A stretch of 64,000 nt of DNA, taken from the IMG/VR virus record IMGVR_UViG_3300034374_009547; one strand, written 5' to 3'. The notes below the pieces were generated by a model. The model did no database searches. It saw only the letters and a list, made by a program, of their open reading frames with translations, and was not told where the DNA came from. Shown here one piece after another: positions 9,001 to 61,684 of the stretch. The stretch comes from a virus. Lineage: Duplodnaviria; Caudoviricetes. The first letter of the stretch is position 1. Every line of letters begins with the position of its first letter. The position numbers and the translations under genes were made by a program.

Positions 9001-10922
9001 ATGCACGTATTCAATCAAGTGGTGTTACACAGCACCAATTGGATATCACAGGTACTGGTGCGCTAAACGCAGGTAGTATTACAAGTGGCTTTGGCAACAT
9101 CAACATTGGTACAAGTATCTTCTCAGGTAATGGTAGTGGATTAACAACGCTAAATGCAAGCAACTTATCAAGTGGTACCGTTGCAGATGCACGTATTCAA
9201 TCAAGCAGTATTACACAACACCAAGGAGATATCACAGGTACTGGCGCACTAAACAGCGGTAGTATTACAAATGGATTTGGTAGCATTGATATTGGTACTG
9301 ACATATTTACTGGTAATGGTAGCGGACTTACAACTCTAAATGCAAGTAACTTGTCAAGCGGTACCGTAAGCGGTAGTAGACTTGGTGGAAATCAGTCAAT
9401 GGCAGGTGTAAAAACATTTAGCGACACAACTGCTTCTACAAGTACTACAACAGGTGCAGTAAAAATTGCAGGCGGTTTAGGTGTTGCAGGCGACTTATAT
9501 GCAGGTACACTTAACGGTAATGGTGCCGGATTAACCAGTCTAAATGCTTCTAATTTAGGTAGTGGAACCGTGCCTAACGCACGTATCAGTGGTACATACA
9601 GCAACATAACTGGTACAGGTGCTCTTAATGCAGGTGAGATTACAAGCGGCTTTGGTAACATCAATATTGGTACAAGTACATTTACTGGTAACGGTAGTGG
9701 ATTGACCAGCGTTAATGCTGCTACACTTGATGGCATTGATAGTTTAAGTTTCCTACGTAGTGACCAAGCAGACACAATGACCGGACTACTTACACTTAAT
9801 CATGCTGGTAATGAAATGTTACGTATGCAAGATACTGCTGCTGATGGATCGCCATATATTACATGGTATCAAGCAGGAACACGTAGAGGTTACATCCAAT
9901 ATGTTGACGGCGGTGATAGAATGTATATTGCTAACGAAGGTGGAAGTACTGCTATCGATCTTGACGGAGGTGTTAACGGACTTATCTTTAGAAATGGCGC
10001 AAATGCCTACACCGTTTGGCACAGCGGTAACGATGGTGCAGGTAGCGGACTAAGTGCTGATAACCTAGATGGTATTAGTTCAGGTAGTTTCTTACGCAGT
10101 GATGCTGATGATAGTTTCTCAGGAACACTTAGTGGTGCCGGTGCTATCAATATTACAGGTAACGTAACTGCTAATGCATTTAGTGGTGACGGTAGTGGAC
10201 TTACTGGTATTAGTGCAGACGATGCTAATACACTAGACGGTATTGATAGCAGTCAGTTCTTACGTAGCGATCAAAATGACACAATGGATGCAGGAGTCAA
10301 CACTACACTAACTATTTTGTCAGACGACACCGGTGCGTCAACTATTCAGTTGTACGGAAACAGCCAAGGTACTGGTAGAGTTTATGTAGGACAAAGTAGT
10401 GCATACGGTGGTGGTATTGAATACAACGGTGATAACTCTCCAGCAACAACTGGCGCTGGTAGTGATTACATCACACTATGGCGTAGAGATAACGGCACAG
10501 ATAGTTGGACAGGTAGAAACCAGTATAACAGCAACAACTGGGAGTTTAGAGGCGAAGTTACAGCGTATGCGTCAGATGCTAGACTCAAAGATGTTACAGG
10601 CAATATTGATAATGCTATAGAAAAAGTCAAAGCACTAAACGGTGTAATTTATACTTGGAATGATACTGCATATGAAAAAGGTTTAAAAACTTACGCAGAT
10701 GATAAAGCACCAGAAGCTGGTTTGCTTGCCCAAGAAGTTCAAAAAGTATTACCAGAAGTAGTTGTACCTGCTCCGTTTGATAAAGAATACCTAACTATCA
10801 AATATGAGCGTGTTGTACCACTACTTGTTGAAGCAATCAAAGAGCAACAAGCACAGATTGATGCTCAAGCAACGGAGATTGCAGAACTACGTGAAATGGT
10901 ACAAAAACTACTGGATAAATAA
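69..10922 (+). CDS. Giant tail fibre / adhesin (3617 aa) with C-terminal Peptidase_S74-type intramolecular chaperone
   Basis: N-terminal Mtd_N-like segment (KRSAVAGKQP...GELAINTADGKVY); beta-helix entry motif (LYVS..GDD.NDG..APVKT); xHGF/LxxG repeats; TLDGxDSxxFLRSD repeats; S/T/G-rich; C-terminal SDARLK...YERVVPLLVEAIKEQQAQI chaperone with coiled coil. Confidence 0.9.
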   Translation: MATTIRHKRSAVAGKQPLVSQLESGELAINTADGKVYLLRDDNTVQDITKRIFEGNSEVKVDDLGDSTVAQISATVNGNEALTITNAGFNFKNNIDIENAGTLTFRELTASGEDGVTLQPPSTLDAGYTLTLPPNKGSVGQILAVNASGELFFNDADIFGGNVLYVSQEQGDDENDGQSAPVKTVKRACQIASGLVYNSDGSINFRRINIKVAVGDYTEQNPIIVPDNTVIKGDGLRGCIIRPANANLDILRVRNACYFGEFTFRDGVDDNFVPLITGDYCVAFDDPDAVDVTDRNTYPNLPNTKPTITTSPYIQNCSILSFLGLNGAKIDGSKVESPNVPVNQIEAENPVVGAIPEQGKSMVANAFTMLSFGGTGWRLTNDAYAQIVSCFQIFLLNGVYTQSGGYCSITNSATNFGLYALRSSGYSPKAFSFDRSFVTQTGSSEGKQTVSVVGINRDAPVEEFILRFRDPDYKTAHDLLLSNKLSIAEDTVTWINAQIAASSPSIWAGFTYNEDKCRRDTRLLVDSIRYDIIFNSNYRTISSALRYFSGSFTNFADQKDQHIAAFAQAKAYTANILNDATATSRSNALWDEIIDILTNGDANTVPGDAVADAYSFPDPTNYNTSYLVGYGDARDQLQANKQFIIDEITAWIAVQVAAETPPFAGSFTYDAAKCERDVGLIIDALIYDITYGGNLQTKRAAEAYFVGTTAQYGANQKEETIAAYERLRDVIADVILEVAVTKSTGNAQTQDTSNTAGSAASKTFAVARIQEIIDFIDGGGVNEVTTIEPGTDWVSGNNEFEAYNRLNNEGAVNIAQNTTEWINEQIQANIWYGFTYDQSKCQRDTQLIVEAVAKDTWDTGNRYSRSAGLSYYTQNLQDSTRISISGQELQTIAAIDQAAVYANTYITSTSIAVQDFVNTRFGIVTTVINDPNDLPQPTEVSSEGDITNSYKTTPTETTFNAATNVNADTNIFTITSHGFTNGQKLIYDSDGNTPIVGLDNEQTYYVKILDANEFTLTFDESGDFDVDIRAVGANTHKFFSNVIEFFVEEVLSSHQTYQTLILESGAESYNFVPGRQISGTTGANNNSALVYEWEPRDRRLVVSVEEVSVGASTLRVQFDETSIISSDHSPSPNNTISINEVAAKTGLGTATFSITATDGSASLTNLVNLPEKQCWFHRPSIVNSSSHTWEYAGSGTDYNALPQNGGNTKEEFEQFEELPGRVYSSGTNELGDFKVGDFITAFNRTGNITFRNKVQVDELDALRLSLSDVAIEEISTSVNLGDDELGGPSDSRMVTQLAVRSFISNRLGGFVDKSVSTAAVPGAIVQLNTNGQLNPDLIPATRQFTNTNSNGYLSRLLLINTIPATDLKAGDIGTENYEQVELILSGNITAADGATITQPGVDGAIGYAKGSYSASGNILVATIGEAWDANEDSTGDPWEVSAGNLFVNGVDSGVNISSKGVSSEIIDNFFLRSSNSSQYLVLDVDDTYNFTTGVTISNLARTSNVVTVTTSTAHGFKIGNVARVYTSDDETFIQNGEVLTVPTSTSFTIANTGIDVSSFAVTDGKVYTIVTSADGNAQGAVTESRFGVLTNIDNTSITAGSGYLPSGGTLVYKDVPLTANTGVGTGATADITVTAGAVTDVDIATGGSGYAVGDLLSANNSNLGGAGSSFECEVVSVEKRAYVDILGGELFVASASSIDFVEDNDSVDTKKTINLDDTRGFNFLAGTTGGGGAVDYIDYRINIPNHGFTSGDPLKYDTLGNVAIGGLLNGNVYYAKSIDANNIELYEGFSLLNKVEFTSTPANNNHNLTRYVVNVVDNSILVEGHGLTTGDAIRIESLDDGSSANVLPDITGDAITSGSRFFVGSVTTNSFTLHELRSDALSSINDLVTNAKDIDDVGVGSADIIANNVSVQAVVNTSSKTKDNWSTLAVTNIDAENIISGTISPSRLGASGTPNSDTALFGDSGYKVVVQTLKKATTTDNPITLTGSSIGAEFYGDPVNIGIANVDFDALATFSKLGTARFLQTQFDVASDGSGQVFIKDGVVDAGTLDGLDSSYFLNPANLTSLVPVTRGGTAIGTYAIGDILYAQSSGSLNTLNIGRANNFLKSNGTTPEWGTALDLSEGLDVGSAKLSSTSTGTGSLYNENVTSLDIGGAATNIKIGSVDVTRNLLPFIDGYEATISQSVVVNLGSLTANTNDPVANGETEVPMADTSSILVGMLVTGSGSIPANTTVSGVTDDYIYLSANTTGTIFSGTTLTFTYTPFTIGVRDGDTINLNGTTVTNLDGSWPVIGATSIATSFTIRTTSNVTADPNDVVQGTATIDANMVIKTPKVIIGAAEASTSPTNASLEGSDGIGTDVAGGSMTIEAGIGTGNSTGADIIFKTGEVSTTSNNPQTSTERLRIDTSGKATFTGEVEVNNTISTTETTVALLDDTATTINMGGAATTVEIGAATGTTTIHNNVDIDLDLNVDGSDITTNQTGTFNLINTNATTLNIGGAATTINMGTGGDGGGTTTIGHDLVVTGDLTVNGNTTTINSTTLTVDDLNIVIASGAASAAAANGAGLTIDGANVTFTYDSGQDRMDLNEDLNLESGNAFFINDQSVLNATTLGAAVVNSSLQTLGTISTGIWQGTIISPTYGGTGINNGTKTITLGGNLTTSGAFNSTFTMTGATSVTFPTSGTLAITGNPLSQFASTTSAQLRGVLSDETGTGVAVFGTSPTFTTGINAASTTMALFDTTATTLNLARAATSITIGATTGTTNIRHNLNVTGDLDIDGGDLTFSDASINIANTTPTTITMGNAATTFTLGATTGTLTVRNATTTLNGNLNVNGNTIDTDETGTFNLVKDNVTTLAFAQAATEIVVGETKAAADLAGALGEMVVRLDLRTNNDMYIDGDLFVSQINNTPIGNVTPSTGAFTTLAANNFVTFTDATNATGATFATGTAAVKITGGLYVAKDIRADNFIGDMDASYLTSGIIPDARIQSSGVTQHQLDITGTGALNAGSITSGFGNINIGTSIFSGNGSGLTTLNASNLSSGTVADARIQSSSITQHQGDITGTGALNSGSITNGFGSIDIGTDIFTGNGSGLTTLNASNLSSGTVSGSRLGGNQSMAGVKTFSDTTASTSTTTGAVKIAGGLGVAGDLYAGTLNGNGAGLTSLNASNLGSGTVPNARISGTYSNITGTGALNAGEITSGFGNINIGTSTFTGNGSGLTSVNAATLDGIDSLSFLRSDQADTMTGLLTLNHAGNEMLRMQDTAADGSPYITWYQAGTRRGYIQYVDGGDRMYIANEGGSTAIDLDGGVNGLIFRNGANAYTVWHSGNDGAGSGLSADNLDGISSGSFLRSDADDSFSGTLSGAGAINITGNVTANAFSGDGSGLTGISADDANTLDGIDSSQFLRSDQNDTMDAGVNTTLTILSDDTGASTIQLYGNSQGTGRVYVGQSSAYGGGIEYNGDNSPATTGAGSDYITLWRRDNGTDSWTGRNQYNSNNWEFRGEVTAYASDARLKDVTGNIDNAIEKVKALNGVIYTWNDTAYEKGLKTYADDKAPEAGLLAQEVQKVLPEVVVPAPFDKEYLTIKYERVVPLLVEAIKEQQAQIDAQATEIAELREMVQKLLDK
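9001..9372 (+). repeat. 186-nt (62-aa) tandem duplication inside the tail fibre
   Basis: atgcacgtattcaatcaag at 9001 and again at 9187; DARIQSSxxTQHQxDITGTGALNxGSIT unit repeated, with a further degenerate copy near 9570-9720. Confidence 0.9.
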
Positions 10923-44315: not shown

Positions 44316-45500
44316 ATGGAATTTATAGAAGATTATCTACAACATATTTGTGAAAAAAAGCTAGATAGCTTTAACAGGGTTGATTCAATTTACTTTAGTA
44401 TTTACAAACAAGTTACTAAAGGAATTGGATTGACAGATAGGCAATACAATCTTATACACAAAAAAATAAGTGAATATTTTGACATTAGCGTAGATGTACA
44501 AACAAAAATACCTATGCGCAAAATTGATAGAAGCAAGTATATAAAGTTAGTTGATACATCAGATGTCTATGGACACGATAATGTTTATGAAAGTTACAAA
44601 TCTAAATGGACATGGATTAAAGTACGGTTTCCTTTTAGTAAAAAAGATATTTGTAAAATTGAAAAATTAAAATATGATGTTGGCATAAGTGAATACTATC
44701 ATAGTAAAGGTTCTCACGAACACTATTTTAAATTGTCTTACATTAATGCATTTCATGTTTGTAAATATTTTAAAAATACAGAATTTGATATTGCAGATGA
44801 TATTTTATTATATGCAGATGAAACAAAAAAAGTATTAGAAAACAGAGACAATCATGTTCCTATGCTTAGTGGAAATACAATAATCAATGTACATGATAAC
44901 ATTACTAATCTAACAAAAAATTTAACTTACATACAAAAAGTTGATCAACATATAAGATACGGTTATGAAATACAAAGAATTAAACCACGCTATCTTATAG
45001 AAAAAATTGCATATAGAAATAATCGTATTGTTCCTGTTGATCCAAATGAAAACAGCCTGTATGATATTGCAAAAGCAATAAATACTTTGCAAAGATTTCC
45101 TTTGCTTGTATTAATTGATACTGATTTACCAAATTCTAGTATGTATGAACAAATAGTAGAATGGCACACTGCTTTTTCTAATTTTGTTGAAGTTAAACAA
45201 CAAAGTGTTTTGTTTAGAGTAGAAACAAAAGATATTGAAAATAATTCATTAAATGATTTTGTAAAAGATAAACAACTAAACAATTGGGTTGACGAAAACA
45301 CAAAAGTAGTGTATATTAAAAAGAACAAATTACCTAAATTACTAATCGATAGTTTTAAACCAATTTGTGCTGTTAGTAAAACTGCTACAAGATGGGGTGG
45401 TAATTTAGGTGCGTATGTAGATCATAATTGTGATTGTGTTATTGTACATGAAACAATCGATTATGGATTTTACAAAGGAAGATTTAGTGACAACCTGTAA
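44316..45500 (+). CDS. Hypothetical protein
   Basis: 394-aa ORF directly after a consensus promoter. Confidence 0.65.
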   Translation: MEFIEDYLQHICEKKLDSFNRVDSIYFSIYKQVTKGIGLTDRQYNLIHKKISEYFDISVDVQTKIPMRKIDRSKYIKLVDTSDVYGHDNVYESYKSKWTWIKVRFPFSKKDICKIEKLKYDVGISEYYHSKGSHEHYFKLSYINAFHVCKYFKNTEFDIADDILLYADETKKVLENRDNHVPMLSGNTIINVHDNITNLTKNLTYIQKVDQHIRYGYEIQRIKPRYLIEKIAYRNNRIVPVDPNENSLYDIAKAINTLQRFPLLVLIDTDLPNSSMYEQIVEWHTAFSNFVEVKQQSVLFRVETKDIENNSLNDFVKDKQLNNWVDENTKVVYIKKNKLPKLLIDSFKPICAVSKTATRWGGNLGAYVDHNCDCVIVHETIDYGFYKGRFSDNL

Positions 45501-46950
45501 ACTTATTATCGAGGATGAAGTAAACATCAAACTAGAAGGATTAGATGTAGATGTACGGAGAAAGTTATCAAATGCTCTCAAGTTCGATGTGCCATACGCA
45601 CGATATATGCCGCAGTATAAACTTGGACGTTGGGACGGCAAAGTTGCTTTTTTTGGTATTGGGGGTACAGGCTATGTTAATCATCTTGACGTCATTGTGG
45701 ATGTACTTGAAAAAAACAGAGTAAGCATTGTAGACATTGAAGACAATCGTCATCCTATTCAACTTGACTTTCCACAAGTAACTGAACGCTATTGGGCAGA
45801 TCAAGGTGTATGTTGGCCTAAAGGACATCCAGCCGAAGGCGAAGAAATCATTCTGCGTGACTATCAAGTAGAAGCAATCAATAACTTTGCAAACAATCCA
45901 CAGAGTCTACAACAGATTGCTACAGGTGCAGGCAAGACTATTACTACTGCTACACTATCACATATGAGTGAAAAGTATGGACGCAGTTTGGTTATTGTCC
46001 CCAATAAGTCGCTAGTTGAGCAAACTGAAGAAGACTATATTAACTGCGGCTTAGATGTAGGTGTATACTTTGGTGATAGAAAGATGTTAAACAAAACACA
46101 TACTATTTGTACATGGCAAAGTTTAAACATACTTGACAAACGACACAAAGATGGCGAAGCAGTATTATCACTAGCAGAGTTTTTAGAAGGTGTTAGCACG
46201 GTAATTGTAGACGAGGTACACCAAGCAAAAGCAGAAGTATTAAAAAACTTACTAACACGCAACTTGCGTAATGCTCCAATACGTTGGGGATTAACTGGCA
46301 CCATACCTAAAGAGAAGTTTGAATTTGAATCAATACATGCAAGTTTAGGTCCAGTTATTGGAGAAATTACAGCAAAAGAATTACAAGACAAAGGTGTACT
46401 ATCGCAATGTCATGTTAATATTGTACAACTTATTGATACGGTAGCACATAATAATTATCAAGAAGAATTAAAATACTTAACAACAAATAAAGCAAGAATT
46501 GAATATATAGGCAAATTATTAAACACGGTAAAACAATCAGGCAATACTCTAATACTTGTTGATAGGATTTCAGCAGGCGAGATCCTACAAGAACTTATTC
46601 CAGGATCTACTTTTGTTAAAGGTGATGTTAAACTAAAGGATAGAAAAGATGCATATGACGAAATTAACACGGCAGATAATCAAGTGGTTATTGCCACTTA
46701 TGGTGTTGCTGCTGTTGGTATTAATATCCCTCGCATCTTTAATTTGGTTCTTATTGAACCCGGAAAATCTTTTGTTAGAGTTATTCAAAGTATAGGCAGA
46801 GGCGTAAGAAAGGCAAAGGACAAAGACTTCGTACAAATATGGGATCTTACAAGCACTTGTAAGTTTGCGAAGCGGCACCTTACTCAACGTAAAAAGTTTT
46901 ACAAAGAGGCGCAGTATCCATTTACAATAGAAAAAGTAGATTGGAATTAA
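45487..46950 (+). CDS. uvsW: UvsW-like SF2 DNA helicase
   Basis: LRDYQ, IATGAGKT, IVDEVH, GLTGT, ATYGVAAVGINIP, QSIGRGVR; likely GTG start at 45487 after aaagga. Confidence 0.92.
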   Translation: MTTCKLIIEDEVNIKLEGLDVDVRRKLSNALKFDVPYARYMPQYKLGRWDGKVAFFGIGGTGYVNHLDVIVDVLEKNRVSIVDIEDNRHPIQLDFPQVTERYWADQGVCWPKGHPAEGEEIILRDYQVEAINNFANNPQSLQQIATGAGKTITTATLSHMSEKYGRSLVIVPNKSLVEQTEEDYINCGLDVGVYFGDRKMLNKTHTICTWQSLNILDKRHKDGEAVLSLAEFLEGVSTVIVDEVHQAKAEVLKNLLTRNLRNAPIRWGLTGTIPKEKFEFESIHASLGPVIGEITAKELQDKGVLSQCHVNIVQLIDTVAHNNYQEELKYLTTNKARIEYIGKLLNTVKQSGNTLILVDRISAGEILQELIPGSTFVKGDVKLKDRKDAYDEINTADNQVVIATYGVAAVGINIPRIFNLVLIEPGKSFVRVIQSIGRGVRKAKDKDFVQIWDLTSTCKFAKRHLTQRKKFYKEAQYPFTIEKVDWN

Positions 46951-47811: not shown

Positions 47812-48080
47812 GAGCACCAGATCTGATACCCGGCCAGCCACTAATATATGAACGTGCTGATGGCGTAGTTTACGCTAGGTATCGAGATCCTCCATACAAT
47901 GAGCTATATGACAGATGGATAATCGGCGGAGATGCAGATGCTGTAAGTAGAGCAACAGGTAACCTATTTAGTTATGCAGATTGGCAAGAAATGATGGAAC
48001 TAGCAAAAGAATATCCAACATTAAAAAAACAAATGCAGAAACTAGTAACAACATATTATATGGTAAAGGAAAATAAATGA
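47808..48080 (+). CDS. Hypothetical protein
   Basis: ATGA-coupled ORF. Confidence 0.6.
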   Translation: MRAPDLIPGQPLIYERADGVVYARYRDPPYNELYDRWIIGGDADAVSRATGNLFSYADWQEMMELAKEYPTLKKQMQKLVTTYYMVKENK

Positions 48081-49153
48081 ACAATTACATTTTTACTAGC
48101 GAAAGTGTTAGTGATGGTCACCCAGATAAGGTTGCAGACCAAATCTCAGATGCACTAGTTGATGCTGGGTTGAAAGCAGGAGACGAGACAACTCGTGTTG
48201 CTGTTGAAACACTTGTAACTACCAATCATGTAACATTGGCGGGCGAAGTAAAAAACTTTAATGTGAGCAAAGAAGAAGTCAAAGAAATTGTGCGCAATAA
48301 AGTTAAAGAGATTGGTTATGAGCAGAGAGGTTTTCATTGGGACAAATTAAATATTTACAATGAGATCCACAGCCAAAGTGCTGACATTGCACTAGGAACT
48401 GATGACTTCGGTGCAGGCGACCAAGGCATTATGTTTGGCTATGCTTGTAATGATAATGAAGCATATCTGCCTGCACCTATTTACTACGCTCACGAAATAC
48501 TAAAAAAACTTAAAAACTTTTCTCCTTGCTTGCGTCCAGATGCAAAATCTCAAGTTAGTGTCGAATACGAAGGTGGCAAAGTTAAGCGCATTGATCAAGT
48601 TGTGATAAGTACACAGCACGAACTAGATAAAAACACACAAGCAAAAAATTGTGCAAGACATGTGGCAAAAGAAGTACTAGGAGACTTAGTTGATAAAGAT
48701 ACTATATGGCATCTTAATCCTACTGGCAACTTTGTTATTGGTGGGCCTGATGGTGACGCTGGTGTTACTGGACGTAAGATTATCGTTGATACTTATGGCG
48801 GTTTTGCTCCTCACGGCGGCGGTGCTTTTAGTGGCAAAGATCCCACCAAAGTAGATAGAAGTGCAGCCTATATGGCTCGTTGGTTAGCAAAGAATGTTGT
48901 AGCAGATGATATGGCAGACTGGTGTCAAATTCAGTTATCGTATGCTATCGGTGTAAAAGAACCTACTAGTATCTATGTTGATTCAAATGGACACAATCGT
49001 AGTATACAACGTTTTATTCGTGAAAACATTGATCTAACACCAAAAGGCATTATTGATAGATTTGACTTGTTTAACTTTCACCAGTATAGTAGTAATTGTA
49101 CATACGGACACTTTGGCAACAAAGATGTACCTTGGGAAAGGATTGGTTGGTAA
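48077..49153 (+). CDS. metK: S-adenosylmethionine synthetase
   Basis: FTSESVSDGHPDK, GAGDQG, GRKIIVDTYGG, GGGAFSGKDPTKVDRS. Confidence 0.98.
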   Translation: MNNYIFTSESVSDGHPDKVADQISDALVDAGLKAGDETTRVAVETLVTTNHVTLAGEVKNFNVSKEEVKEIVRNKVKEIGYEQRGFHWDKLNIYNEIHSQSADIALGTDDFGAGDQGIMFGYACNDNEAYLPAPIYYAHEILKKLKNFSPCLRPDAKSQVSVEYEGGKVKRIDQVVISTQHELDKNTQAKNCARHVAKEVLGDLVDKDTIWHLNPTGNFVIGGPDGDAGVTGRKIIVDTYGGFAPHGGGAFSGKDPTKVDRSAAYMARWLAKNVVADDMADWCQIQLSYAIGVKEPTSIYVDSNGHNRSIQRFIRENIDLTPKGIIDRFDLFNFHQYSSNCTYGHFGNKDVPWERIGW

Positions 49154-49938
49154 TGCGTATTATTGCAGGACCGTGTCAACACGAAACACTAGAACAAAGT
49201 TTAGAGATTGCATCGGAGTGCAAACGTGTATGTGACTTGTTTGACATTGAATATATTTTTAAAGCAAGTTTTGACAAAGCAAATAGAACAAGCATAGCAG
49301 GCAAACGTGGAGTAGGAATGCCTGCAACTATGCAAGACTTTATTGATATTAAAGAAAAAATAAATGTTAAAACATTAACAGACGTACATGATGTTATGCA
49401 GATAAAAGCAATATGTAATCAATTCAATTATGCAATCGACGTGTTACAGATTCCTGCATTTTTGTGTAGACAAACAGATTTAATTCAAGCAGCATGTAAA
49501 ACAAATAAAATTGTAAATATCAAAAAAGGGCAATTCTTGGCACCTTGGGATGTTAAAGGTATACTAAGTAAAACTGAAGGTGCTAGAGAAGTTTGGATAA
49601 CCGAAAGGGGTACTAGTTTTGGGTATAATACTTTGGTCACTGATTTTACTGGCATCCAGTATATGCGTGACAATTTTTCTGTTCCTGTGGTATTTGACGT
49701 CACACACTCAGTCCAGAAGCCAGGAGGCCAAGGTGACAGCAGTGGTGGGAATAGGGATTATGTTCCAGCTCTTGCTCGTGCTGCTGCTGGCATGGGCGTT
49801 GATAACTTTTTCTTAGAAGTACATGTTGATCCAGATAACGCTCCAAGTGATGGACCTAATATGTTACGCTTAGAAGACTTTGTCGAAACCGTACGACAAT
49901 TATATCATATCAATAAAACCGTAAAAGGATTCGAATGA
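49153..49938 (+). CDS. kdsA: Kdo-8-phosphate synthase
   Basis: IIAGPC, KASFDKANRTS, QIPAFLCRQTDL, KKGQFLAP, ERGTSFGY, FDVTHSVQ, EVHVDP..APSDG; start coupled (TAATG). Confidence 0.96.
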   Translation: MRIIAGPCQHETLEQSLEIASECKRVCDLFDIEYIFKASFDKANRTSIAGKRGVGMPATMQDFIDIKEKINVKTLTDVHDVMQIKAICNQFNYAIDVLQIPAFLCRQTDLIQAACKTNKIVNIKKGQFLAPWDVKGILSKTEGAREVWITERGTSFGYNTLVTDFTGIQYMRDNFSVPVVFDVTHSVQKPGGQGDSSGGNRDYVPALARAAAGMGVDNFFLEVHVDPDNAPSDGPNMLRLEDFVETVRQLYHINKTVKGFE

Positions 49939-50603
49939 CAACAGCAATACTAATACCTGCACGATATGCCAGTAGTAGATTTCCTGGTAAAATGATGGCC
50001 AAATTAAATGGCGTGCCACTAGTAGAACACGTTTATAACAAGTGTGCTGCTACAGGACTAGATACATATGTACTTACAGATCATCAAGACATTTACAACT
50101 ATATGGGTGCTAATAGATGTCTTATGACAGGTGAAGCAGAAAATGGCACAGAACGTTGTATGCAGGTTATTGACAAAGTACTACAATATGATAGATATAT
50201 TAACGTACAAGGTGACATGCCTGATATCACTGAAGATATCATACGTGCAGTAGAAGGCGAACTACAACGTAGTGATATTGCAACCGCATATACGCCCATG
50301 GATTTTAACTTGCGAAATGATCCAAATAGTGTTAAAATGATACATAGTAGAGGTAGAGCACATTGGTTTTTACGTGCAAGTCTTACATACGGTGATCACC
50401 ACTTAGGTGTGTATGGCTACAACAGAGAAGCAAAGATTGTTTATACCACAAGCATTAAATACACAGAGGAAGATATCGAACAACTAGAACAACTGCGTTG
50501 GATACAAAACGGACATAAAATTGGTGTAGTAGAAGTTGAGTTTGACGGTATTGAAATTAACACGCCAGAGGATTTAGAAAAGTGGGAAAAAAATAATGGC
50601 TAG
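49935..50603 (+). CDS. kdsB: CMP-Kdo synthetase (3-deoxy-manno-octulosonate cytidylyltransferase)
   Basis: IPARYASSRFPGK, NGTER, NVQGD, HLGVYGY, EQLEQLRWI, INTPED. Confidence 0.95.
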   Translation: MTTAILIPARYASSRFPGKMMAKLNGVPLVEHVYNKCAATGLDTYVLTDHQDIYNYMGANRCLMTGEAENGTERCMQVIDKVLQYDRYINVQGDMPDITEDIIRAVEGELQRSDIATAYTPMDFNLRNDPNSVKMIHSRGRAHWFLRASLTYGDHHLGVYGYNREAKIVYTTSIKYTEEDIEQLEQLRWIQNGHKIGVVEVEFDGIEINTPEDLEKWEKNNG

Positions 50604-50751
50604 AGAACTAATAGACAATAAAGATAAAAAGTTAATCGAACAATGGTTAAAAAATAATAAAATTACAATTTGTGAAGCAGGTGCTATCACCGAAGATATT
50701 GTATATACATTTGGTTCAAAGAAAAAGAAAAAAACAACAAATGCCAAATAA
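50596..50751 (+). CDS. 51-aa basic microprotein (not in ORF track)
   Basis: Hand translation MARELIDNKDKKLIEQWLKNNKITIC...KKKKKTTNAK*; overlaps both neighbours in coupled fashion. Confidence 0.6.
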   Translation: MARELIDNKDKKLIEQWLKNNKITICEAGAITEDIVYTFGSKKKKKTTNAK

Positions 50752-51211
50752 AGAACTAGACTTGTTTAAAGAACTTATCCCTGCTATCGATATGGGCATC
50801 AAAGAGTTGTATGACGCTGCTGGAGATGATGGCAAGAAGGATATAAAACTTGACTTATGGAACTTGAACCGTTATATTAGTAGTGTAAAAGGCAACTATG
50901 AAAAAACTGCACTAGCAGTGTTCAAGGTTAATGAATACTACAACAAGAACTGGAATGTGCTAGGCGGCACTAATCATGTAAAACTGCAATGGCAATTATT
51001 ATGTGTTGCTGGCAAAACAGGTAAAACACAATTCCATCCGTGGATTGGACTAAAAAAGAAAAAAGACGATAGCAGCAAAGCAGTAAATTTGTTATCACAA
51101 ATATATCCAGATATGAAAATGGACGAGGTAGAAACACTTGCTAGAATATCTACAAAAAAAGAAATTAAAGAACTCGCCCGAGAACACGGTTACGAAAAAG
51201 TTGACATCTAA
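50741..51211 (+). CDS. Possible clamp-loader small subunit (gp62-like)
   Basis: NRYISS, LQWQLLC, QFHPWIGLKKKK, helical C-terminus resembling gp62; start reassigned to ATG 50741. Confidence 0.4.
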   Translation: MPNKELDLFKELIPAIDMGIKELYDAAGDDGKKDIKLDLWNLNRYISSVKGNYEKTALAVFKVNEYYNKNWNVLGGTNHVKLQWQLLCVAGKTGKTQFHPWIGLKKKKDDSSKAVNLLSQIYPDMKMDEVETLARISTKKEIKELAREHGYEKVDI

Positions 51212-51881
51212 ATACACTTGTGAATATTGTTCAAAAAGTTATATGAAAGAAAGTACATTGTTAGCGCATATGTGCGAGCCAAAGAGACGTTGGCTACAAA
51301 AAGATGAAAAACGTGTACAGGTTGGCTTTTATGCATTTCAAAGATTTTACAAGCTGAGTGCAGGACACAAGAAAGATAAGACATATGAAGAATTTGTTAA
51401 GTCATCCTTCTACAATGCGTTTGTTAAGTTTGGTAGTTTTGTTAACAATGTACGGCCTCTCTATCCTGACAAGTATATTGATTACGTAGTTACTAGCAAC
51501 GTAAAACTAGATCACTGGTGTAGAGAAGAAATGTATGAAAAATACGCCATTGAACTTATTCGCAAAGAAGGTGTAGAAACTGCATTAGAGCGTTCAATAA
51601 ATACAATGACCGAATGGGCTAAAGAAAAGAATAGTATGTATAATCATTATTTCTTGTATGCTTCACCAAATAGAATTACATGGGATATTAAAGATGGAAA
51701 AATTTCGCCTTGGTTAGTATTGAATTGTACAAGTGGAAAAACTGCATTAAGTAATTTTAATGACGAACAATTAAGCATGTTGAATGCTGTTTTAGATCCA
51801 AGTCATTGGGCATTACGTTTTAAAAGACAACCGAAAGATGTTGAATTAGTTAAAACAATAGTCGAGAAAGCAAATATATGA
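51201..51881 (+). CDS. Hypothetical protein with N-terminal C2H2-like zinc finger (start uncertain)
   Basis: CEYCSKSYMKESTLLAHMC. Confidence 0.6.
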   Translation: MTSKYTCEYCSKSYMKESTLLAHMCEPKRRWLQKDEKRVQVGFYAFQRFYKLSAGHKKDKTYEEFVKSSFYNAFVKFGSFVNNVRPLYPDKYIDYVVTSNVKLDHWCREEMYEKYAIELIRKEGVETALERSINTMTEWAKEKNSMYNHYFLYASPNRITWDIKDGKISPWLVLNCTSGKTALSNFNDEQLSMLNAVLDPSHWALRFKRQPKDVELVKTIVEKANI

Positions 51882-52096
51882 ATTTTAGAAAATTGCAAGA
51901 TGATGTACAAGTTTACGAACTTGATGAACCTGTTGAACTGATTGTTAAAACCAAAGCACCAGCAAAGTGGTTATTGATTGACAGAGAGACAGGAGAGCAG
52001 TATATTGGTGCTACGCCTAAAGAAGGCGAAAAGCATTGGAATCGTGTACCTGATAGTGAAATGTGGAGATATGCAATGGAGCGTGAAGATGCCTGA
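51878..52096 (+). CDS. Small hypothetical protein
   Basis: ATGA-coupled; KTKAPAKWLLIDRETGEQY. Confidence 0.6.
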   Translation: MNFRKLQDDVQVYELDEPVELIVKTKAPAKWLLIDRETGEQYIGATPKEGEKHWNRVPDSEMWRYAMEREDA

Positions 52097-52664
52097 TATT
52101 GACATCGACTTTGCTGATCGCAGTGTTATATTAGACAAGATACAACACCGTGTAGCAAAATTAGATACAGGTAAAAAACACAATACTGGTGTGTATGTAA
52201 CCGAGTGTCCGCACAACCCTGTTGACAACTTGGCTACTATTGATTACAAGACAGCAGAAGATAGAGGCTACTTCAAACTAGACTTTCTTAATGTTAGCAT
52301 TTACAATGATGTTAAGGACGAAGAACATTTACAACGTTTAATGAACAAGGAACCAGAATGGAGTCTTTTACAACACGACGATTTCACCGATCTTATCTTT
52401 CATATCTCCGGACACGGAGAAATATTACGCAAAACAAAGCCGACAAACGTAGAACAATTAGCAGCAGTACTAGCGATGATACGGCCGGCCAAACGCCATC
52501 TTGTTAACGAAACTTGGCCAACGATATTAGAAAAAGTGTGGGTCGCTCCCACTGACGGTGGTTACTATTTTAAGAAAGCACATGCTATTGCATATGCTGT
52601 TAGTGTTGTAGTTCATATGAATTTAATTTGTGAACAACTTAACGAACAGCAGACCGTCTCATAA
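52089..52664 (+). CDS. Miniature C-family (DnaE-like) polymerase core fragment, 191 aa
   Basis: MPDIDIDF, KKHNTGVYV, GYFKLDFL, LAMIRP, GYYFKKAHAIAYA collinear with DnaE motifs; ggag SD before ATG 52089. Confidence 0.85.
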   Translation: MPDIDIDFADRSVILDKIQHRVAKLDTGKKHNTGVYVTECPHNPVDNLATIDYKTAEDRGYFKLDFLNVSIYNDVKDEEHLQRLMNKEPEWSLLQHDDFTDLIFHISGHGEILRKTKPTNVEQLAAVLAMIRPAKRHLVNETWPTILEKVWVAPTDGGYYFKKAHAIAYAVSVVVHMNLICEQLNEQQTVS

Positions 52665-53013
52665 CTTGCACACTTTTACGTTTTACTCTTTTTATTGTCA
52701 AGTTATTTAAATTAACACAATGACCCATTACTACTTTAACATCTTTAGAATTCATAGTCATCATACTATAACTTAATTCATGAATCTCACTACGTAGAAA
52801 AATGTTTATAGGAATCATTCTATTAGATTCCCACCACCAAATTTCACCTAGTTCTAATAATAAACATTTGTGTTCTTCGGTACGTAATTTGGTGTAAACA
52901 TACATAGTTGTTACAATACTATCTTGATTTACAATAATACCCACGTATTCGTTGCCGCCATAGGCGACTACGCTCAAATAAGGAAATTTTGTTTCAATAT
53001 CTTTTAATAACAT
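52639..53013 (-). CDS. Hypothetical protein
   Basis: ORF convergent with mini-DnaE; start reassigned to ATG 53013. Confidence 0.6.
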   Translation of the reverse strand: MLLKDIETKFPYLSVVAYGGNEYVGIIVNQDSIVTTMYVYTKLRTEEHKCLLLELGEIWWWESNRMIPINIFLRSEIHELSYSMMTMNSKDVKVVMGHCVNLNNLTIKRVKRKSVQVMRRSAVR

Positions 53014-53049
53014 ATTACCATAAATACTTATATAAAAAGGTTCCAGCCA

Positions 53050-54030
53050 ATGCAAAAAATGTATAGATATTTAGCAAATAACAAAGTTGTTGTTCTAGCC
53101 AATTTGGCAGGTTACGTGACGGAGTATAGACCAGTGTATCAAAAAAATTTACAAGTATATAGAGGCATTGATAATGTAGTACATTTTGAAGTACGTAATC
53201 ATGATCAAAAGCCTATAAATTTAAGTGGGTATACACCAAAGATTATGGTGTTTACTGAAAACAATGTTCTTGTATTAGAAAAAGAAGGCAACGTTTTAGA
53301 CGATGCAATTACAAGAACAACTAGTGCAGTAGAAACTGCACCCGATAAAACATTAACATTTTCAAGTACAAGTAATATTACAGCAGGTATGTTTGTAAGT
53401 GGAACCTACATCAAAAATAACACACTGGTAACTGATGTAACTGACAACACCGTGACTATGAATAAATCTGCTACTGACGCTGTTCCTACTGGAACTGAAA
53501 TTACTTTCCAAACAAAAAGTAAAAAAGGCGTGTTTACAATTACATTAACAGAAAATGAATTGTTAGATCTAAAACAACAATATTTAAAATATGCAATTTA
53601 TCTAGTTAACAGCACTGGAGAAAAAGTTTTAACATACAGCAGTGACCATTTTGAAGCAAAAGGAACTATGTACTTAGATGGAATGACATTTCCTGGACCT
53701 TTAGCAAGTTATAATTTACAATCGTTTACAGCAGACAACGATGTTTGGTATACTGAATCAATTGATGCTCAACCAGGAATAAACGGAAATAGTGCATTAC
53801 ACACAGCAGCATTTTATACAGATACTTTTTCTGGTGATATAGTTGTTGAAGGTACATTAGAAAATTTAGTTACATTGGATACAAACTGGGCAGAAGTTGC
53901 TACTCTTACACTTACAGGATCTGAATCAGAGCCAACTCCTTTAAATTTTAACGGCGTATTTACTTTTTTAAGATTTAAAACTGCAACTGATCCTACGGAC
54001 AAAATATCAAAAATATTAATTAGAAATTAA
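53050..54030 (+). CDS. Hypothetical, probable virion structural protein
   Basis: Late core CATAAATA at 53019; beta-rich, T-rich. Confidence 0.55.
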   Translation: MQKMYRYLANNKVVVLANLAGYVTEYRPVYQKNLQVYRGIDNVVHFEVRNHDQKPINLSGYTPKIMVFTENNVLVLEKEGNVLDDAITRTTSAVETAPDKTLTFSSTSNITAGMFVSGTYIKNNTLVTDVTDNTVTMNKSATDAVPTGTEITFQTKSKKGVFTITLTENELLDLKQQYLKYAIYLVNSTGEKVLTYSSDHFEAKGTMYLDGMTFPGPLASYNLQSFTADNDVWYTESIDAQPGINGNSALHTAAFYTDTFSGDIVVEGTLENLVTLDTNWAEVATLTLTGSESEPTPLNFNGVFTFLRFKTATDPTDKISKILIRN

Positions 54031-54433: not shown

Positions 54434-55426
54434 ATGAGCATCGTATCTGACACCTTGACACTATATCTGCCTGCAAAGCGCAAAACTACTCCTAGTGGGT
54501 GGACCAGTTTCAATGCGCCTTGTTGTGTTCACAATAATGAAAATGCAGATACAAGAGGCAGAGGCGGTATCATATATGAAGGCGAAGTTATTTCATATCA
54601 TTGTTTTAACTGCGGCTTCAAAGCAAGTTGGCAACCAGGACGTAATCTTAGTTACAAACTCAAAAAACTTTTGGAATGGTTAAACGTTCCTGATCAAGAT
54701 ATTACAAAACTTGCACTGGATGTAATGCGTGAAAACGAAGGCGTCGAAGTTCAAAAATATTCTGTTGAACTGCCAGAGTTTGCAACTACACAATTACCAG
54801 AAGGTGCAGAGCCATTGTCCAAACACATGTGGGCAGAGGCTGGTCATTTAGACGAAAGAATCACACGTTGCTTTCAATATATGTTAGAACGTGATTTAAG
54901 TATCGAGGACATAGATTATCACTGGTCGCCAACACTTGCTTATCGTGACAGACTTATTATACCTTTCTACTACGAGGGTCGTATAGTTGGATATACAGCC
55001 CGTACAATTAAGGATAACAAGGTTAAGTATCTAACTGACTCGCAACCTGGGTATGTGTTTAACTTAGACGCACAAGGTCCTAATAAAGTGTTTTGTATAG
55101 TATGCGAAGGTCCTATTGATGCACTGCACGTAGAAGGTTGCGCACTTACAGGAAGCGATATTAATGACGCACAAGCACTATTACTTAACAGGCTTAACAA
55201 AGATATATATGTTGTTCCAGACAGAGATAAAGCCGGAAGCAAGTTGGTGGAGCAGGCTATCGATAGAGGTTGGCATGTTAGTTTACCAGACTGGGATACA
55301 GAAGTAAATGACATCGGTGATGCAGTAGCAAAATATGGAAGGCTATATACATTGTATAGTATTGCAAGTGCTGCTGAAAGCAGCCCATTAAAAATAAGAT
55401 TAAAGGCGAAAAAATGGTTTGGTTAA
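54434..55426 (+). CDS. DNA primase (T4 gp61-like)
   Basis: Zn motif CCVH...YHCFNCGF; RLIIPF, GYTAR; TOPRIM VCEGPIDA and PDRDKAG. Confidence 0.93.
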   Translation: MSIVSDTLTLYLPAKRKTTPSGWTSFNAPCCVHNNENADTRGRGGIIYEGEVISYHCFNCGFKASWQPGRNLSYKLKKLLEWLNVPDQDITKLALDVMRENEGVEVQKYSVELPEFATTQLPEGAEPLSKHMWAEAGHLDERITRCFQYMLERDLSIEDIDYHWSPTLAYRDRLIIPFYYEGRIVGYTARTIKDNKVKYLTDSQPGYVFNLDAQGPNKVFCIVCEGPIDALHVEGCALTGSDINDAQALLLNRLNKDIYVVPDRDKAGSKLVEQAIDRGWHVSLPDWDTEVNDIGDAVAKYGRLYTLYSIASAAESSPLKIRLKAKKWFG

Positions 55427-55706: not shown

Positions 55707-55785
55707 CATTCTATTTTGGGTACCGTATATTTGGTTATGCAGTTTACCAGAAAAACTAATGCAGGCGGCCATTGACGCAGCATGA
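55684..55785 (+). CDS. 33-aa single-TM microprotein (not in ORF track)
   Basis: MIELIIYNILFWVPYIWLCSLPEKLMQAAIDAA*; ATGA overlap with 55782. Confidence 0.6.
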   Translation: MIELIIYNILFWVPYIWLCSLPEKLMQAAIDAA

Positions 55786-58531: not shown

Positions 58532-59947
58532 ATGGCAACTAGACAAAATACAGATTATGGATATGATATACAAAAAGTATATTTAGAAATGTTTATGACA
58601 GACGCAGAAAGTTTTGTGCGCTGTCAAGGTGTGTTTGATCCGCAAACATTTGATAGACGCTTACAAGATCCAGCAAAATTTGTAAAGGATTATGTGGAAG
58701 AACACAATGCACTTCCAACATTTGATATGGTTAATGCTGCTACTAACAGCGACTTAAAAGATCCAGGGCAACTGCAAGAGAATCATTATGATTGGTTGTT
58801 GCAGGACTTTGAAACATTTAGCAAACATAAAGCATTAGAAGCAGCTATTCTTAAAAGTGCAGACTTGTTGGAAAAAGGGCAGTATGGTGCGTGTGAGGAC
58901 TTGGTTAAACAGGCTGTACAAATTGGGTTGCAAAAAGACTTGGGCACAGATTACTTTGCAGATCCAAGGGCTAGACTAGAAGGTATTAAAGACAAAAACG
59001 GACAAGTTAGCACAGGCTGGCCAGCACTAGATAAGAAATTGTTTGGTGGATTTAACAGAGGCGAACTAAACATTTTTGCAGGTGGTTCGGGTTCAGGTAA
59101 GAGTTTGTTCTTGGCTAATTTGGGTGTGAACTGGTGCTTGCTAGGTATGAACGTGTTGTATCTAACATTTGAACTTAGTGAAGCATTGGTTAGTATGCGT
59201 GTAGATTCAATGACAACTGATATTGCAAGTCGTGACATTTTTAAAAGCATTGACGATGTTGAAATGAAAGTCAAGATGATTGGCAAGAAAGCAGGTGCAT
59301 TCCAAGTCAAGTATATGCCCACAGGTAAGAACGCAAACGATTTAAGAGCATACATCAAAGAGTATGAAATCAAAACAGGACGCAAACTTGATGTTGTGCT
59401 AGTAGACTATTTGGATTTGATGCATCCAAATGCTGTTAAGATTTCAGCAGAGAACTTGTTTGTTAAGGACAAGTATGTATCAGAAGAACTGCGTAACTTG
59501 GCTATGGAACTTAATACGGTGTTTGTTACAGCATCGCAGTTGAACAGAAGTTCAGTTGAAGAAATTGAATTTGACCATAGTCACATATCTGGTGGTATTT
59601 CAAAGATCAATACAGCAGATAATTTGATTGGTATCTTTACAAGTAGAGCAATGCGTGAGCGTGGACGTTATCAAATACAACTTATGAAAACACGTAGTAG
59701 TAGTGGTGTTGGACAAAAGATTGATTTAGAATTTGATGTAGATAGTTTACGTATACGTGATTTAGGCGAGGATGAAGAATACAAAGAATTTGAGAAACGC
59801 AAGTCAACCGTATTTGATCAAATCAAGCGCAATAATACACCCGCAGTTGAAAAAGAAGATCCCAGCGAAGGCGACACGGTAGGCAAAATTCGTGCAGAAG
59901 CAGACAGCACACAATTAAGAAACTTTTTGAGTAATTTAGGATCTTAA
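58532..59947 (+). CDS. Replicative DnaB-like helicase (T4 gp41-like)
   Basis: STGWPALD, AGGSGSGKS, YLTFELSE, VDYLDL, TASQLNR, QLMKTR. Confidence 0.95.
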   Translation: MATRQNTDYGYDIQKVYLEMFMTDAESFVRCQGVFDPQTFDRRLQDPAKFVKDYVEEHNALPTFDMVNAATNSDLKDPGQLQENHYDWLLQDFETFSKHKALEAAILKSADLLEKGQYGACEDLVKQAVQIGLQKDLGTDYFADPRARLEGIKDKNGQVSTGWPALDKKLFGGFNRGELNIFAGGSGSGKSLFLANLGVNWCLLGMNVLYLTFELSEALVSMRVDSMTTDIASRDIFKSIDDVEMKVKMIGKKAGAFQVKYMPTGKNANDLRAYIKEYEIKTGRKLDVVLVDYLDLMHPNAVKISAENLFVKDKYVSEELRNLAMELNTVFVTASQLNRSSVEEIEFDHSHISGGISKINTADNLIGIFTSRAMRERGRYQIQLMKTRSSSGVGQKIDLEFDVDSLRIRDLGEDEEYKEFEKRKSTVFDQIKRNNTPAVEKEDPSEGDTVGKIRAEADSTQLRNFLSNLGS

Positions 59948-60037: not shown

Positions 60038-61684
60038 ATGAAAACAGATTTAGAAAATATACAAAGGCTTTATGACAGATTTAAAAGGCCAGTACCTGAA
60101 GGTACAGAATATCAAGAGAGACTAGTTGAAGAGTTTGAGTTAATACTAGACCTACGCTTCACAGAATACTTCCTACAAATTTGTGACATTATAGATCTTA
60201 CCACTGATATCAAACACATGACACGTGGATCAGCGGGCAGTAGTCTAGTGTGTTACTTGCTTGGGATTACAGACGTGGATCCCATCAAGTGGAAGATACC
60301 TGTGGCGAGGTTTATGAACCCACTGCGTGATGACCTACCGGATGTTGATATCGATTTTGAACATTGGCGACAAGGTGAAGTTATGAATCGCATATTCAAA
60401 AAGTGGCCCGGCATGACGGCAAGGTTGAGCAACTATGTCACGTACAAACCAAAAAGTGCCAAACGTGAGGCAGCCAAACGATTGGGCGCCACAGGTAGAC
60501 TTCCTAGAAACTTTACATATGAATCAGTAGGTGTAGATCCTACAGAAGCAAAACGCATAGAGCGTAAATTACTAGGCAAAAAAAGAGCAATATCAAAACA
60601 TTGTGGAGGCATCGTTATGTTCACTAGAAAACTACCTAAATCACTTATCTCAGAAGACAACCAAATATTATTAGACAAACACGAAGTTGAGGATCTTGAA
60701 CACCTCAAAGTTGACATACTGGCCAATAGAGGCTTGAGTCAACTACTGGAAATAGACCCGCATACAGCATTAGAAGACTATCCTGAAGAGGATGCAGCAA
60801 CAGCAGCATTGCTTGCTAGAGGCGATGTACTAGGTGTTACACAAGGGGAAAGCCCTGCTATGCGTAGACTATTCCGTGCAATACAACCTACCTGTGTACA
60901 GGATTGTGTGTTTGCTACAGCCCTTGTACGACCTGTTGCTATGAGCGGAAGACAAAAAGCAGCAGTGTTCCAAGACTGGTCGCAAGAAGCAACACAAGAC
61001 AGCATTGTATTTGAAGACGATGCTATAGAAATTATAAGTAGCATTATAGGAGTAGATGCATATGAAGCTGATTCATACCGTAGGGCGTTTGCCAAAAAGA
61101 ATGATGAAAAGATTTTGGAGTTTGTGGAACGCTTGGGAAACAACCCTCAACGAGCACAGGCCATGGCTGCACTACAGGAGTTATCCGGTTTCGGACTATG
61201 CCGCGCTCATGCTGTTAATCTCGGAAGACTCATCTGGGCACTGGCATACCAAAAAGCACACAACCCAGAAGCCTTCTGGAGAGCCAACCTCCGTCACTGC
61301 CAAGGAAGCTATAGAAGCTGGGTGTATCAAACAGAAGCACACAGACGAAACATACTAACTGAACCTGGTTGGTGGCACAGAGGATTTCCACGTGGACTAG
61401 GTGTACAACAGCGTTTCTTAGAACGTGTAAACTTTGCTGGTGTTATTGCCAACGGTAGAACATTCCGTGGCCGCAACGGACGCTATGTTACATTCCTCAC
61501 ACTGGGCACCAACTATGGTGAATACGTAGATGTAACCATACAAAAGCCGTTTCAGTATAGAGACGGCGACATAGTCAGTGGTAGCGGAGTTGTTAGACAC
61601 CAAAACAACTCAGATTACATCAATTGTACAGATGCAAGATTGTTTACTTTTGCGCAATGGCGACAGGAGACATATGACGTCTAA
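60038..61684 (+). CDS. dnaE: PHP-less DNA polymerase III alpha-like protein (548 aa) with C-terminal OB fold
   Basis: RGSAGSSLVCYLLGITDVDP, RFMNPLR..LPDVDIDF, KHCGG, LKVDIL, QGES, ALVRP, GFGLCRAHA, FAGVIANGR..VTFLTL. Confidence 0.9.
   Translation: MKTDLENIQRLYDRFKRPVPEGTEYQERLVEEFELILDLRFTEYFLQICDIIDLTTDIKHMTRGSAGSSLVCYLLGITDVDPIKWKIPVARFMNPLRDDLPDVDIDFEHWRQGEVMNRIFKKWPGMTARLSNYVTYKPKSAKREAAKRLGATGRLPRNFTYESVGVDPTEAKRIERKLLGKKRAISKHCGGIVMFTRKLPKSLISEDNQILLDKHEVEDLEHLKVDILANRGLSQLLEIDPHTALEDYPEEDAATAALLARGDVLGVTQGESPAMRRLFRAIQPTCVQDCVFATALVRPVAMSGRQKAAVFQDWSQEATQDSIVFEDDAIEIISSIIGVDAYEADSYRRAFAKKNDEKILEFVERLGNNPQRAQAMAALQELSGFGLCRAHAVNLGRLIWALAYQKAHNPEAFWRANLRHCQGSYRSWVYQTEAHRRNILTEPGWWHRGFPRGLGVQQRFLERVNFAGVIANGRTFRGRNGRYVTFLTLGTNYGEYVDVTIQKPFQYRDGDIVSGSGVVRHQNNSDYINCTDARLFTFAQWRQETYDV

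Follow-up and report, generated by a model that had tools for sequence, protein, structure and literature searches.

The gene under study lies at positions 52089–52664 on the + strand of a 64 kb stretch of phage DNA, the whole of which is referred to below as the window. It is an intact open reading frame of 191 aa followed by a stop codon, and its ATG overlaps the stop codon (TGA) of the preceding 72-aa ORF (51878–52096) by 8 nt, which suggests translational coupling. The following features of the window were used in the analysis:

45430..46950, + strand: UvsW-like helicase, upstream edge of the conserved replication/recombination module
50741..51211, + strand: 156-aa protein (phrog_11758), whose upstream position is shared with Phosso, PAC2 and Atu_ph07
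51243..51881, + strand: C2H2-type zinc-finger protein (phrog_11058), 212 aa
51878..52096, + strand: 72-aa ORF, variable; absent here in PAC2, replaced in some metagenomic contigs
52089..52664, + strand: C-unit (P0001), 191 aa, the probable C-terminal (Mg2+/template-binding) unit of a split minimal Pol III alpha
52639..53055, − strand: convergent gene (phrog_11637, 117–138 aa)
54434..55426, + strand: Toprim primase, conserved downstream module member
58532..59947, + strand: DnaB-like replicative helicase, conserved downstream module member
60038..61684, + strand: one-piece PHP-less DnaE core (P0002), 548 aa, with its own RGS, PDVDIDF and KVD motifs

When the proteins of the window were compared by tblastn with four distant jumbo phages, one module was found to be conserved in five lineages. 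Its first part comprises, in this order, UvsW, a 168-aa protein, the 156-aa protein, the C2H2 zinc-finger protein, variable small genes and the C-unit; the convergent gene, one or two structural-like proteins, the primase and DnaB follow. The C2H2 gene was located upstream of the C-unit gene and on the same strand in 5/5 lineages compared; it directly adjoins the C-unit gene in PAC2, and one or two small genes lie between the two in the window, 121Q, Atu_ph07 and Phosso. Phages that are otherwise identical differ in the small genes occupying this slot. The 72-aa ORF of the window matches the C-terminal end of phrog_4098, and other contigs carry an additional 98–104-aa DUF6626-like ORF between the C2H2 gene and the C-unit gene. 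On the downstream side, the 3′ ends of the phrog_11637 gene and the C-unit gene overlap by 4–26 nt. This layout shows striking conservation, being found in the window as well as in Phosso, PAC2, 121Q and Atu_ph07. A gp62-like protein and a zinc-finger protein had been named as neighbours in a preliminary description of this DNA. The zinc-finger assignment is carried by a sub-threshold C2H2 Pfam match (E 0.004) together with the deposited annotation of the PAC2 ortholog; the gp62-like assignment (small subunit of a clamp loader, 156-aa protein) was kept as a lead only, with an atlas match to clusters of which 13% of the members carry PF16790 and with no HMM match. Atlas searches with the C2H2 protein and with the convergent gene gave nothing usable.

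Several further observations were made in the window and its relatives. Genes for an S-adenosylmethionine synthetase, a KdsA-like protein (DAHP_synth_1) and a KdsB-like protein (CTP_transf_3) at 48077–50603 (+) form an insertion in the replication module that separates the UvsW-side genes from the C-unit operon, a place from which they are absent in the cultured relatives compared. A single 3617-aa ORF (69–10922, +) is located among tail-sheath and gp15-like structural genes. A PolB Pfam run on relatives identified a family B polymerase in Phosso, PAC2 and the IMG/VR genomes G001 and G002; no PolB match was obtained among the part of the large window ORFs that was scanned. Scanning for promoters and terminators gave counts near the shuffled expectation. 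Short contigs 100% identical to 52203–52415 were present in two metatranscriptomic runs at a depth of ~3, for which DNA carry-over is possible. Contigs from four metatranscriptomic runs of different studies were identical to a ~480-nt stretch at about 54444–54977, in the 5′ third of the primase ORF, with depths of 25–109 versus 2–10 for the adjacent genes; Illumina adapter sequence was present at the end of two of them. The stretch may represent either an abundant, discrete RNA species or an artefact of the libraries.

The motifs of the C-unit were assigned on E. coli DnaE (2hnh numbering) by alignment with a profile of 76 homologs. Five motifs are present in DnaE order: PDIDIDF (residues 2–8), KH (30–31), KLDFL (63–67), IRP (131–133) and GYYFKKAHAIAY (158–169). 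Residues 1–68 comprise palm strands with D3, D5 and D65, and residues 70–190 comprise reduced helical fingers with R132-P133 and the helix bearing K163, H165 and Y169. In the alignment, M1-P2-D3-I4-D5 is placed on M399-P400-D401-F402-D403, K63 and D65 correspond to K553 and D555, R132-P133 to R639-P640 (the RP of the RPG motif), and F161..A170 to F756..A765, putting H165 on H760. The active-site residues of E. coli DnaE are D401, D403 and D555, and H760 is its proposed steric gate, reported to be invariant in Pol III alpha (PMC8485763). The thumb is missing from the C-unit, with 56 residues between D7 and K63 versus 148 between D405 and K553 in E. coli, and the fingers have lost ~80 residues that in DnaE separate the RP motif from the FNKSH helix. 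Pfam scan and profile alignment to DnaE revealed neither a PHP domain nor an OB fold nor an RGS segment, and no other family exceeded the cut-off in the Pfam scan, in which a weak DUF2000 match (E 0.16) was the only other one; phrog_11778 (“DNA polymerase”) was matched with E 7e-60. The preliminary description had claimed an ORF starting exactly at PDIDIDF, the motifs KH, KLDFL, IRP and GY.F.K.HA..Y in order, three catalytic aspartates equivalent to D401, D403 and D555, a deleted thumb, and the absence of PHP domain, RGS segment and OB fold, and it proved correct on all of these points.

The fold of the C-unit was modelled with AlphaFold2 from the 76-sequence alignment (pLDDT 96.4, pTM 0.89). 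Foldseek matches of the model at E ≤ 1e-3 were Pol III alpha chains only. Structures were superimposed with VIA-align: residues 1–187 of the model were placed on residues 461–841 of the Taq enzyme (3e0d; Z 9.5, rmsd 3.8, 185 aligned), residues 1–191 on residues 419–856 of the M. tuberculosis enzyme (5lew; Z 9.5, rmsd 4.0, 189 aligned) and residues 1–186 on residues 400–781 of the E. coli enzyme (2hnh; Z 8.8, rmsd 4.4, 180 aligned), and the best unrelated structure reached Z 3.3. According to these alignments, ~380–440 residues of DnaE are covered by the 191 residues of the C-unit, which is thus a homolog of DnaE residues 399 to ~781 minus the thumb and ~80 finger residues.

The C-unit belongs to a large family, with at least 8000 clusters at 90% identity (E ≤ 1e-3); an exhaustive search of representatives gave 422 clusters at 50% identity (E ≤ 1e-3), nearly all of 180–220 aa. 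Homologs were found in 109 phage records of the PA5oct, Rak2/121Q, Atu_ph07 and Phosso groups, and a protein identical to the C-unit occurs in 40 blocks of the assembly collection. Among 76 diverse homologs with a mean column identity of 28%, invariance is confined to the columns D3, D5, K63, D65, R132 and P133, and at least 90% of the sequences share D7, H31, G34, Y36, K162, H165 and A170. All of the 80 homolog loci taken from IMG/VR are intact ORFs with the same MPD start and the same length. Pairwise dN/dS values versus the C-unit gene of the window (Nei–Gojobori, 42 pairs with unsaturated dS) had a median of 0.13, and the highest value was 0.25. The catalytic residues, H165 included, are kept under strong purifying selection. 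Eroding catalytic aspartates, neutral evolution or an upstream frameshift restoring a normal-length DnaE had been named beforehand as signs that would speak against a functional short gene; the aspartates are invariant in the 76 homologs, dN/dS gives no pseudogene signal, and no such frameshift was found, the only tblastn match to the N-terminal half in the window lying inside the unrelated 548-aa gene. A word search for longer, fused relatives of the C-unit found none and was a weak search, and a DNA-level search of the C-unit region against cultured phages gave no match.

The N-terminal half of the polymerase was sought with Pfam PF07733 over whole records, and a separate ORF, referred to as the N-unit, was found in Phosso, PAC2, G001, G002, 121Q and Atu_ph07, that is, in every related large genome examined (6). 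It lies 31–182 kb from the C-unit gene (31 kb in 121Q, 122 kb in G001, 182 kb in Atu_ph07). Where it was read out (Phosso, PAC2, G001, G002), the N-unit is 169–185 aa long and ends in ...GVGRGSSVASY...(D/K/R)EF(L/I)x-stop, thereby carrying the GRGS triphosphate motif; the arginine of the DnaE ERF motif (R390) is not conserved at this end, at which E-F is invariant. The short ORFs of the six records match only positions about 19–97 of PF07733. In the direct comparison, positions 19–95 are covered by the N-unit and positions 96–196 by the C-unit of G001, which is 88% identical to that of the window; the coverage being complementary, the two genes tile the domain without overlap. Consistent with this division, the N-unit profile matches E. 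coli DnaE 264–392 (E 1.5e-6), and the C-unit begins at 399. N-units form at least 8000 clusters at 90% identity, and their conserved neighbours are a Cpn10-like gene and MazG-, NT5C- or PRA-PH-like genes. Counts of C-units and N-units per host genus in the phage collection were 34/34 for Escherichia, 8/8 for Salmonella, 8/8 for Erwinia, 4/4 for Xanthomonas, 4/4 for Yersinia and 11/10 for Klebsiella.

An N-unit belonging to the window's own phage would lie outside the 64 kb analysed. When the N-units of Phosso and PAC2 served as tblastn queries, the only match in the window was the N-terminus of P0002; the long contigs with an identical C-unit stop ~11–13 kb downstream of it. Ten near clusters, together with exact look-ups of three proteins (P0140, P0137 and P0409), led to no contig or sample with an identical C-unit, and a metagenome scan for the N-unit likewise gave no such sample, and yielded a 343-kb contig of an 88%-identical relative. 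The search for a separate ORF with an RGS segment, which the preliminary description had proposed, was thus successful in six related genomes and without result inside the window. Its first suggestion, that the gene encodes one half of a split polymerase, with the N-terminal palm supplied by another locus, gains support from the N-units of the relatives, from a natural fusion and from predicted binding.

The natural fusion (P0381, 375 aa; ENA ERZ28653423 scaffold_211374, 1066–2193) is one uninterrupted ORF and is known from a single 2.4-kb contig. Its residues 15–180 are 31% identical to an N-unit (E 9e-23), its residues 190–370 match residues 2–173 of the C-unit in the exhaustive representative search, and the linker between the two parts has only about ten residues. 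A joint MAFFT alignment of P0381 with both unit families forced the N-units onto the C-half. For the prediction of a complex, the G001 N-unit (35-row alignment) was combined with the window C-unit (76 rows). An ipSAE of 0.92 was obtained in 3/3 runs, versus 0.41 for the best of three controls; in calibration, the mark applied to ipSAE was reached by 58/80 solved complexes and by 2/110 mismatched pairs. The runs share at least 90% of the contacts, and the partner pLDDT is at least 91; folded alone, the N-unit gave a pLDDT of 67, with its N-terminal 76 residues and the GRGS strand poorly predicted. The tightest predicted contacts are those of N-unit residues 150–151, just before GRGS, with C-unit residues 6–8 on the DxD strand. 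The GRGS strand of the N-unit and the DxD strand of the C-unit are accordingly predicted to share one palm sheet, such that a single Pol-beta-like palm would be formed from two chains. Since one-piece DnaE structures have been solved, the high ipSAE may largely reflect likeness to, or memory of, DnaE; with this qualification, the model supports binding of the N-unit and the C-unit to each other.

The second DnaE-like gene of the window, P0002, had been suggested as a partner of the C-unit; this was not confirmed, the gene being a complete one-piece DnaE core and not a missing half. P0002 adjoins DnaB, matches PF07733 positions 10–260 together with the finger domain, and has its best relative (36% identity) in the 484-kb uncultured huge phage LR756508.1. 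It occurs on at least four contigs with an identical C-unit and is missing from the 70–88% relatives G001 and G002. It is also missing from ENA contig k141_17347, which has an identical C-unit: the proteins compared there, which extend from 43453 up to and including that of the 375-aa gene at 55782, are 100% identical to those of the window, DnaB is only 83% identical, and the genes downstream differ. The variable presence of P0002 in near-identical phages indicates a mosaic, variable region. As it is complete alone and variably present, P0002 is a separate polymerase gene and not the partner of the C-unit; on these two grounds, and with an identity of ~20% to the C-unit, it was also rejected as a recent paralog.

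With good confidence, P0001 can be assigned to the split minimal DNA polymerase III alpha known from T4-like jumbo phages of group 2.2, as its C-terminal unit. The C-unit is a member of a split-enzyme family already described in silico, which was proposed for the group 2.2 jumbo phages by Iyer et al. (2021, Viruses 13:63; PMC7824862). The polymerase activity is wholly inferred, as no biochemical work on the family was found in the literature. The heterodimer of N-unit and C-unit, ~376 aa in all, would be an active, dNTP-selective, template-directed DNA polymerase. On its own it would probably be distributive, because thumb, PHP domain, clamp-binding motif and OB fold are lacking, and its binding to DNA may be too weak without a further partner, because the thumb and ~80 finger residues are missing. 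It would probably work beside the family B replicase of the phage, in primer extension, lagging-strand synthesis or recombination-linked repair; such a role is suggested by the fixed position of the C-unit gene between the UvsW/UvsY and primase/DnaB genes, and possible cooperation of the split enzyme with the family B enzyme was suggested by Iyer et al. (PMC7824862). A more far-reaching version appears rather unlikely, namely that the pair is the smallest working C-family polymerase (~376 aa) and thumbless, that the C2H2 or phrog_11637 neighbour grips the duplex, and that such a phage has three polymerases (family B, the split mini-Pol III and the one-piece 548-aa core).

Other functions of the C-unit were weighed against this assignment. 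The heterodimer might be catalytic without being a template-directed DNA polymerase, acting as an untemplated or terminal nucleotidyltransferase, as a maker of a nucleotide signal or as an enzyme for RNA primers only. Many members of the Pol-beta-like superfamily are not polymerases, the C-unit has lost its thumb and a large part of its fingers, and the N-unit adjoins nucleotide-metabolism genes (MazG-, NT5C- and PRA-PH-like). This reading is nevertheless unlikely: the conserved finger helix with its steric-gate histidine and K/Y residues is needed only for templated dNTP selection, and the C-unit gene resides in a fixed primase/helicase/UvsW module. The preliminary description had offered, as its alternative, a repurposed minimal nucleotidyltransferase, formed by the C-unit alone or together with window neighbours (the C2H2 protein or the 548-aa core), for which an N-unit would be unneeded. 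All three aspartates do lie in one chain, the window holds no N-unit and the C2H2 neighbour is conserved; however, the C-unit has no GRGS motif, which completes a Pol-beta-like site, N-units co-occur with C-units across phage groups, and the natural fusion joins the C-unit to an N-unit and to nothing else. Pairing with P0002 in particular is contradicted by the low similarity (only ~20%) and by the absence of P0002 from G001, G002 and a contig with an identical C-unit. Independent action of the C-unit is thus not supported and is considered very improbable.

The extreme reduction of the C-unit could also be taken as the mark of a non-catalytic remnant of a polymerase with a structural or regulatory task, for example as a tether or modulator of the family B replicase, the primase or the helicase. 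In this family, whose mean column identity is 28%, it is exactly the catalytic residues that have remained invariant, the steric-gate histidine is conserved and dN/dS is ~0.13, so that this explanation is hardly credible. Only the small size of the gene would point to a pseudogene or to a piece of a full-length dnaE created by assembly. The gene has a clean start that is coupled to the stop of the upstream ORF, the 80/80 intact homolog loci share start and length, the identical protein recurs in 40 collection blocks, and the flanking frames encode unrelated conserved proteins; given also the invariant residues, the low dN/dS and the size of the family, decay or fragmentation is practically excluded. 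The assignment as the catalytic-aspartate half of a split Pol III alpha was retained.

Both halves of the split mini-Pol III occur in great abundance in viromes from aquatic samples. An active two-chain enzyme would mark the minimal catalytic core within the bacterial replicase family and would be a natural example of a polymerase whose active site is put together from two polypeptides; it would then also offer a candidate model for an ancestral Pol III, as argued by Iyer et al. (PMC7824862). Weinheimer and Aylward (2022, PMC9123017) reported PF07733 as the single gene that sets the largest cluster of marine jumbo phages apart. For annotation, the label “split Pol III alpha, C-terminal unit” is to be preferred over “DNA polymerase” or “hypothetical”, and the gene needs to be kept distinct from P0002, the one-piece DnaE core at a distance of 7 kb.

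Among known systems, the closest are the orthologs from the split Pol III alpha of group 2.2 phages (PA5oct/PAC2, 121Q/Rak2, Atu_ph07, Phosso), which belong to the same family with 39–49% identity, have the same split point and a distant N-unit, and share the module of UvsW, C2H2 protein, C-unit, convergent gene, primase and DnaB. The phage of the window differs from these relatives in being uncultured and derived from estuarine or freshwater samples, in having a 72-aa gene wedged before the C-unit gene, and in carrying an extra one-piece 548-aa DnaE core ~7 kb downstream, which the relatives are without. This core, P0002, is likewise a phage-encoded PHP-less C-family protein, but it is a single chain of a different lineage. 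In comparison with bacterial DnaE (2HNH, 2HPI/3E0D, 5LEW), the C-unit keeps the aspartates of the Pol-beta-like palm and the equivalents of K553, the RP motif and the FNKSH steric-gate helix, whereas PHP domain, thumb, clamp-binding motif, OB fold, tau-binding C-terminus and ~80 finger residues are lacking and the triphosphate-binding half of the palm is, in the relatives of the C-unit, a separate polypeptide. Cyanobacterial DnaE (DnaE-n and DnaE-c of Synechocystis) is also encoded by two distant genes, and split inteins splice its halves into a full-length DnaE. Two distant genes for a C-family polymerase are common to both systems, but the split site differs; moreover, the N-unit ends in EF(L/I)x and the C-unit starts with MPDxD, which leaves no room for an intein, so that the halves of the phage enzyme must stay non-covalent.
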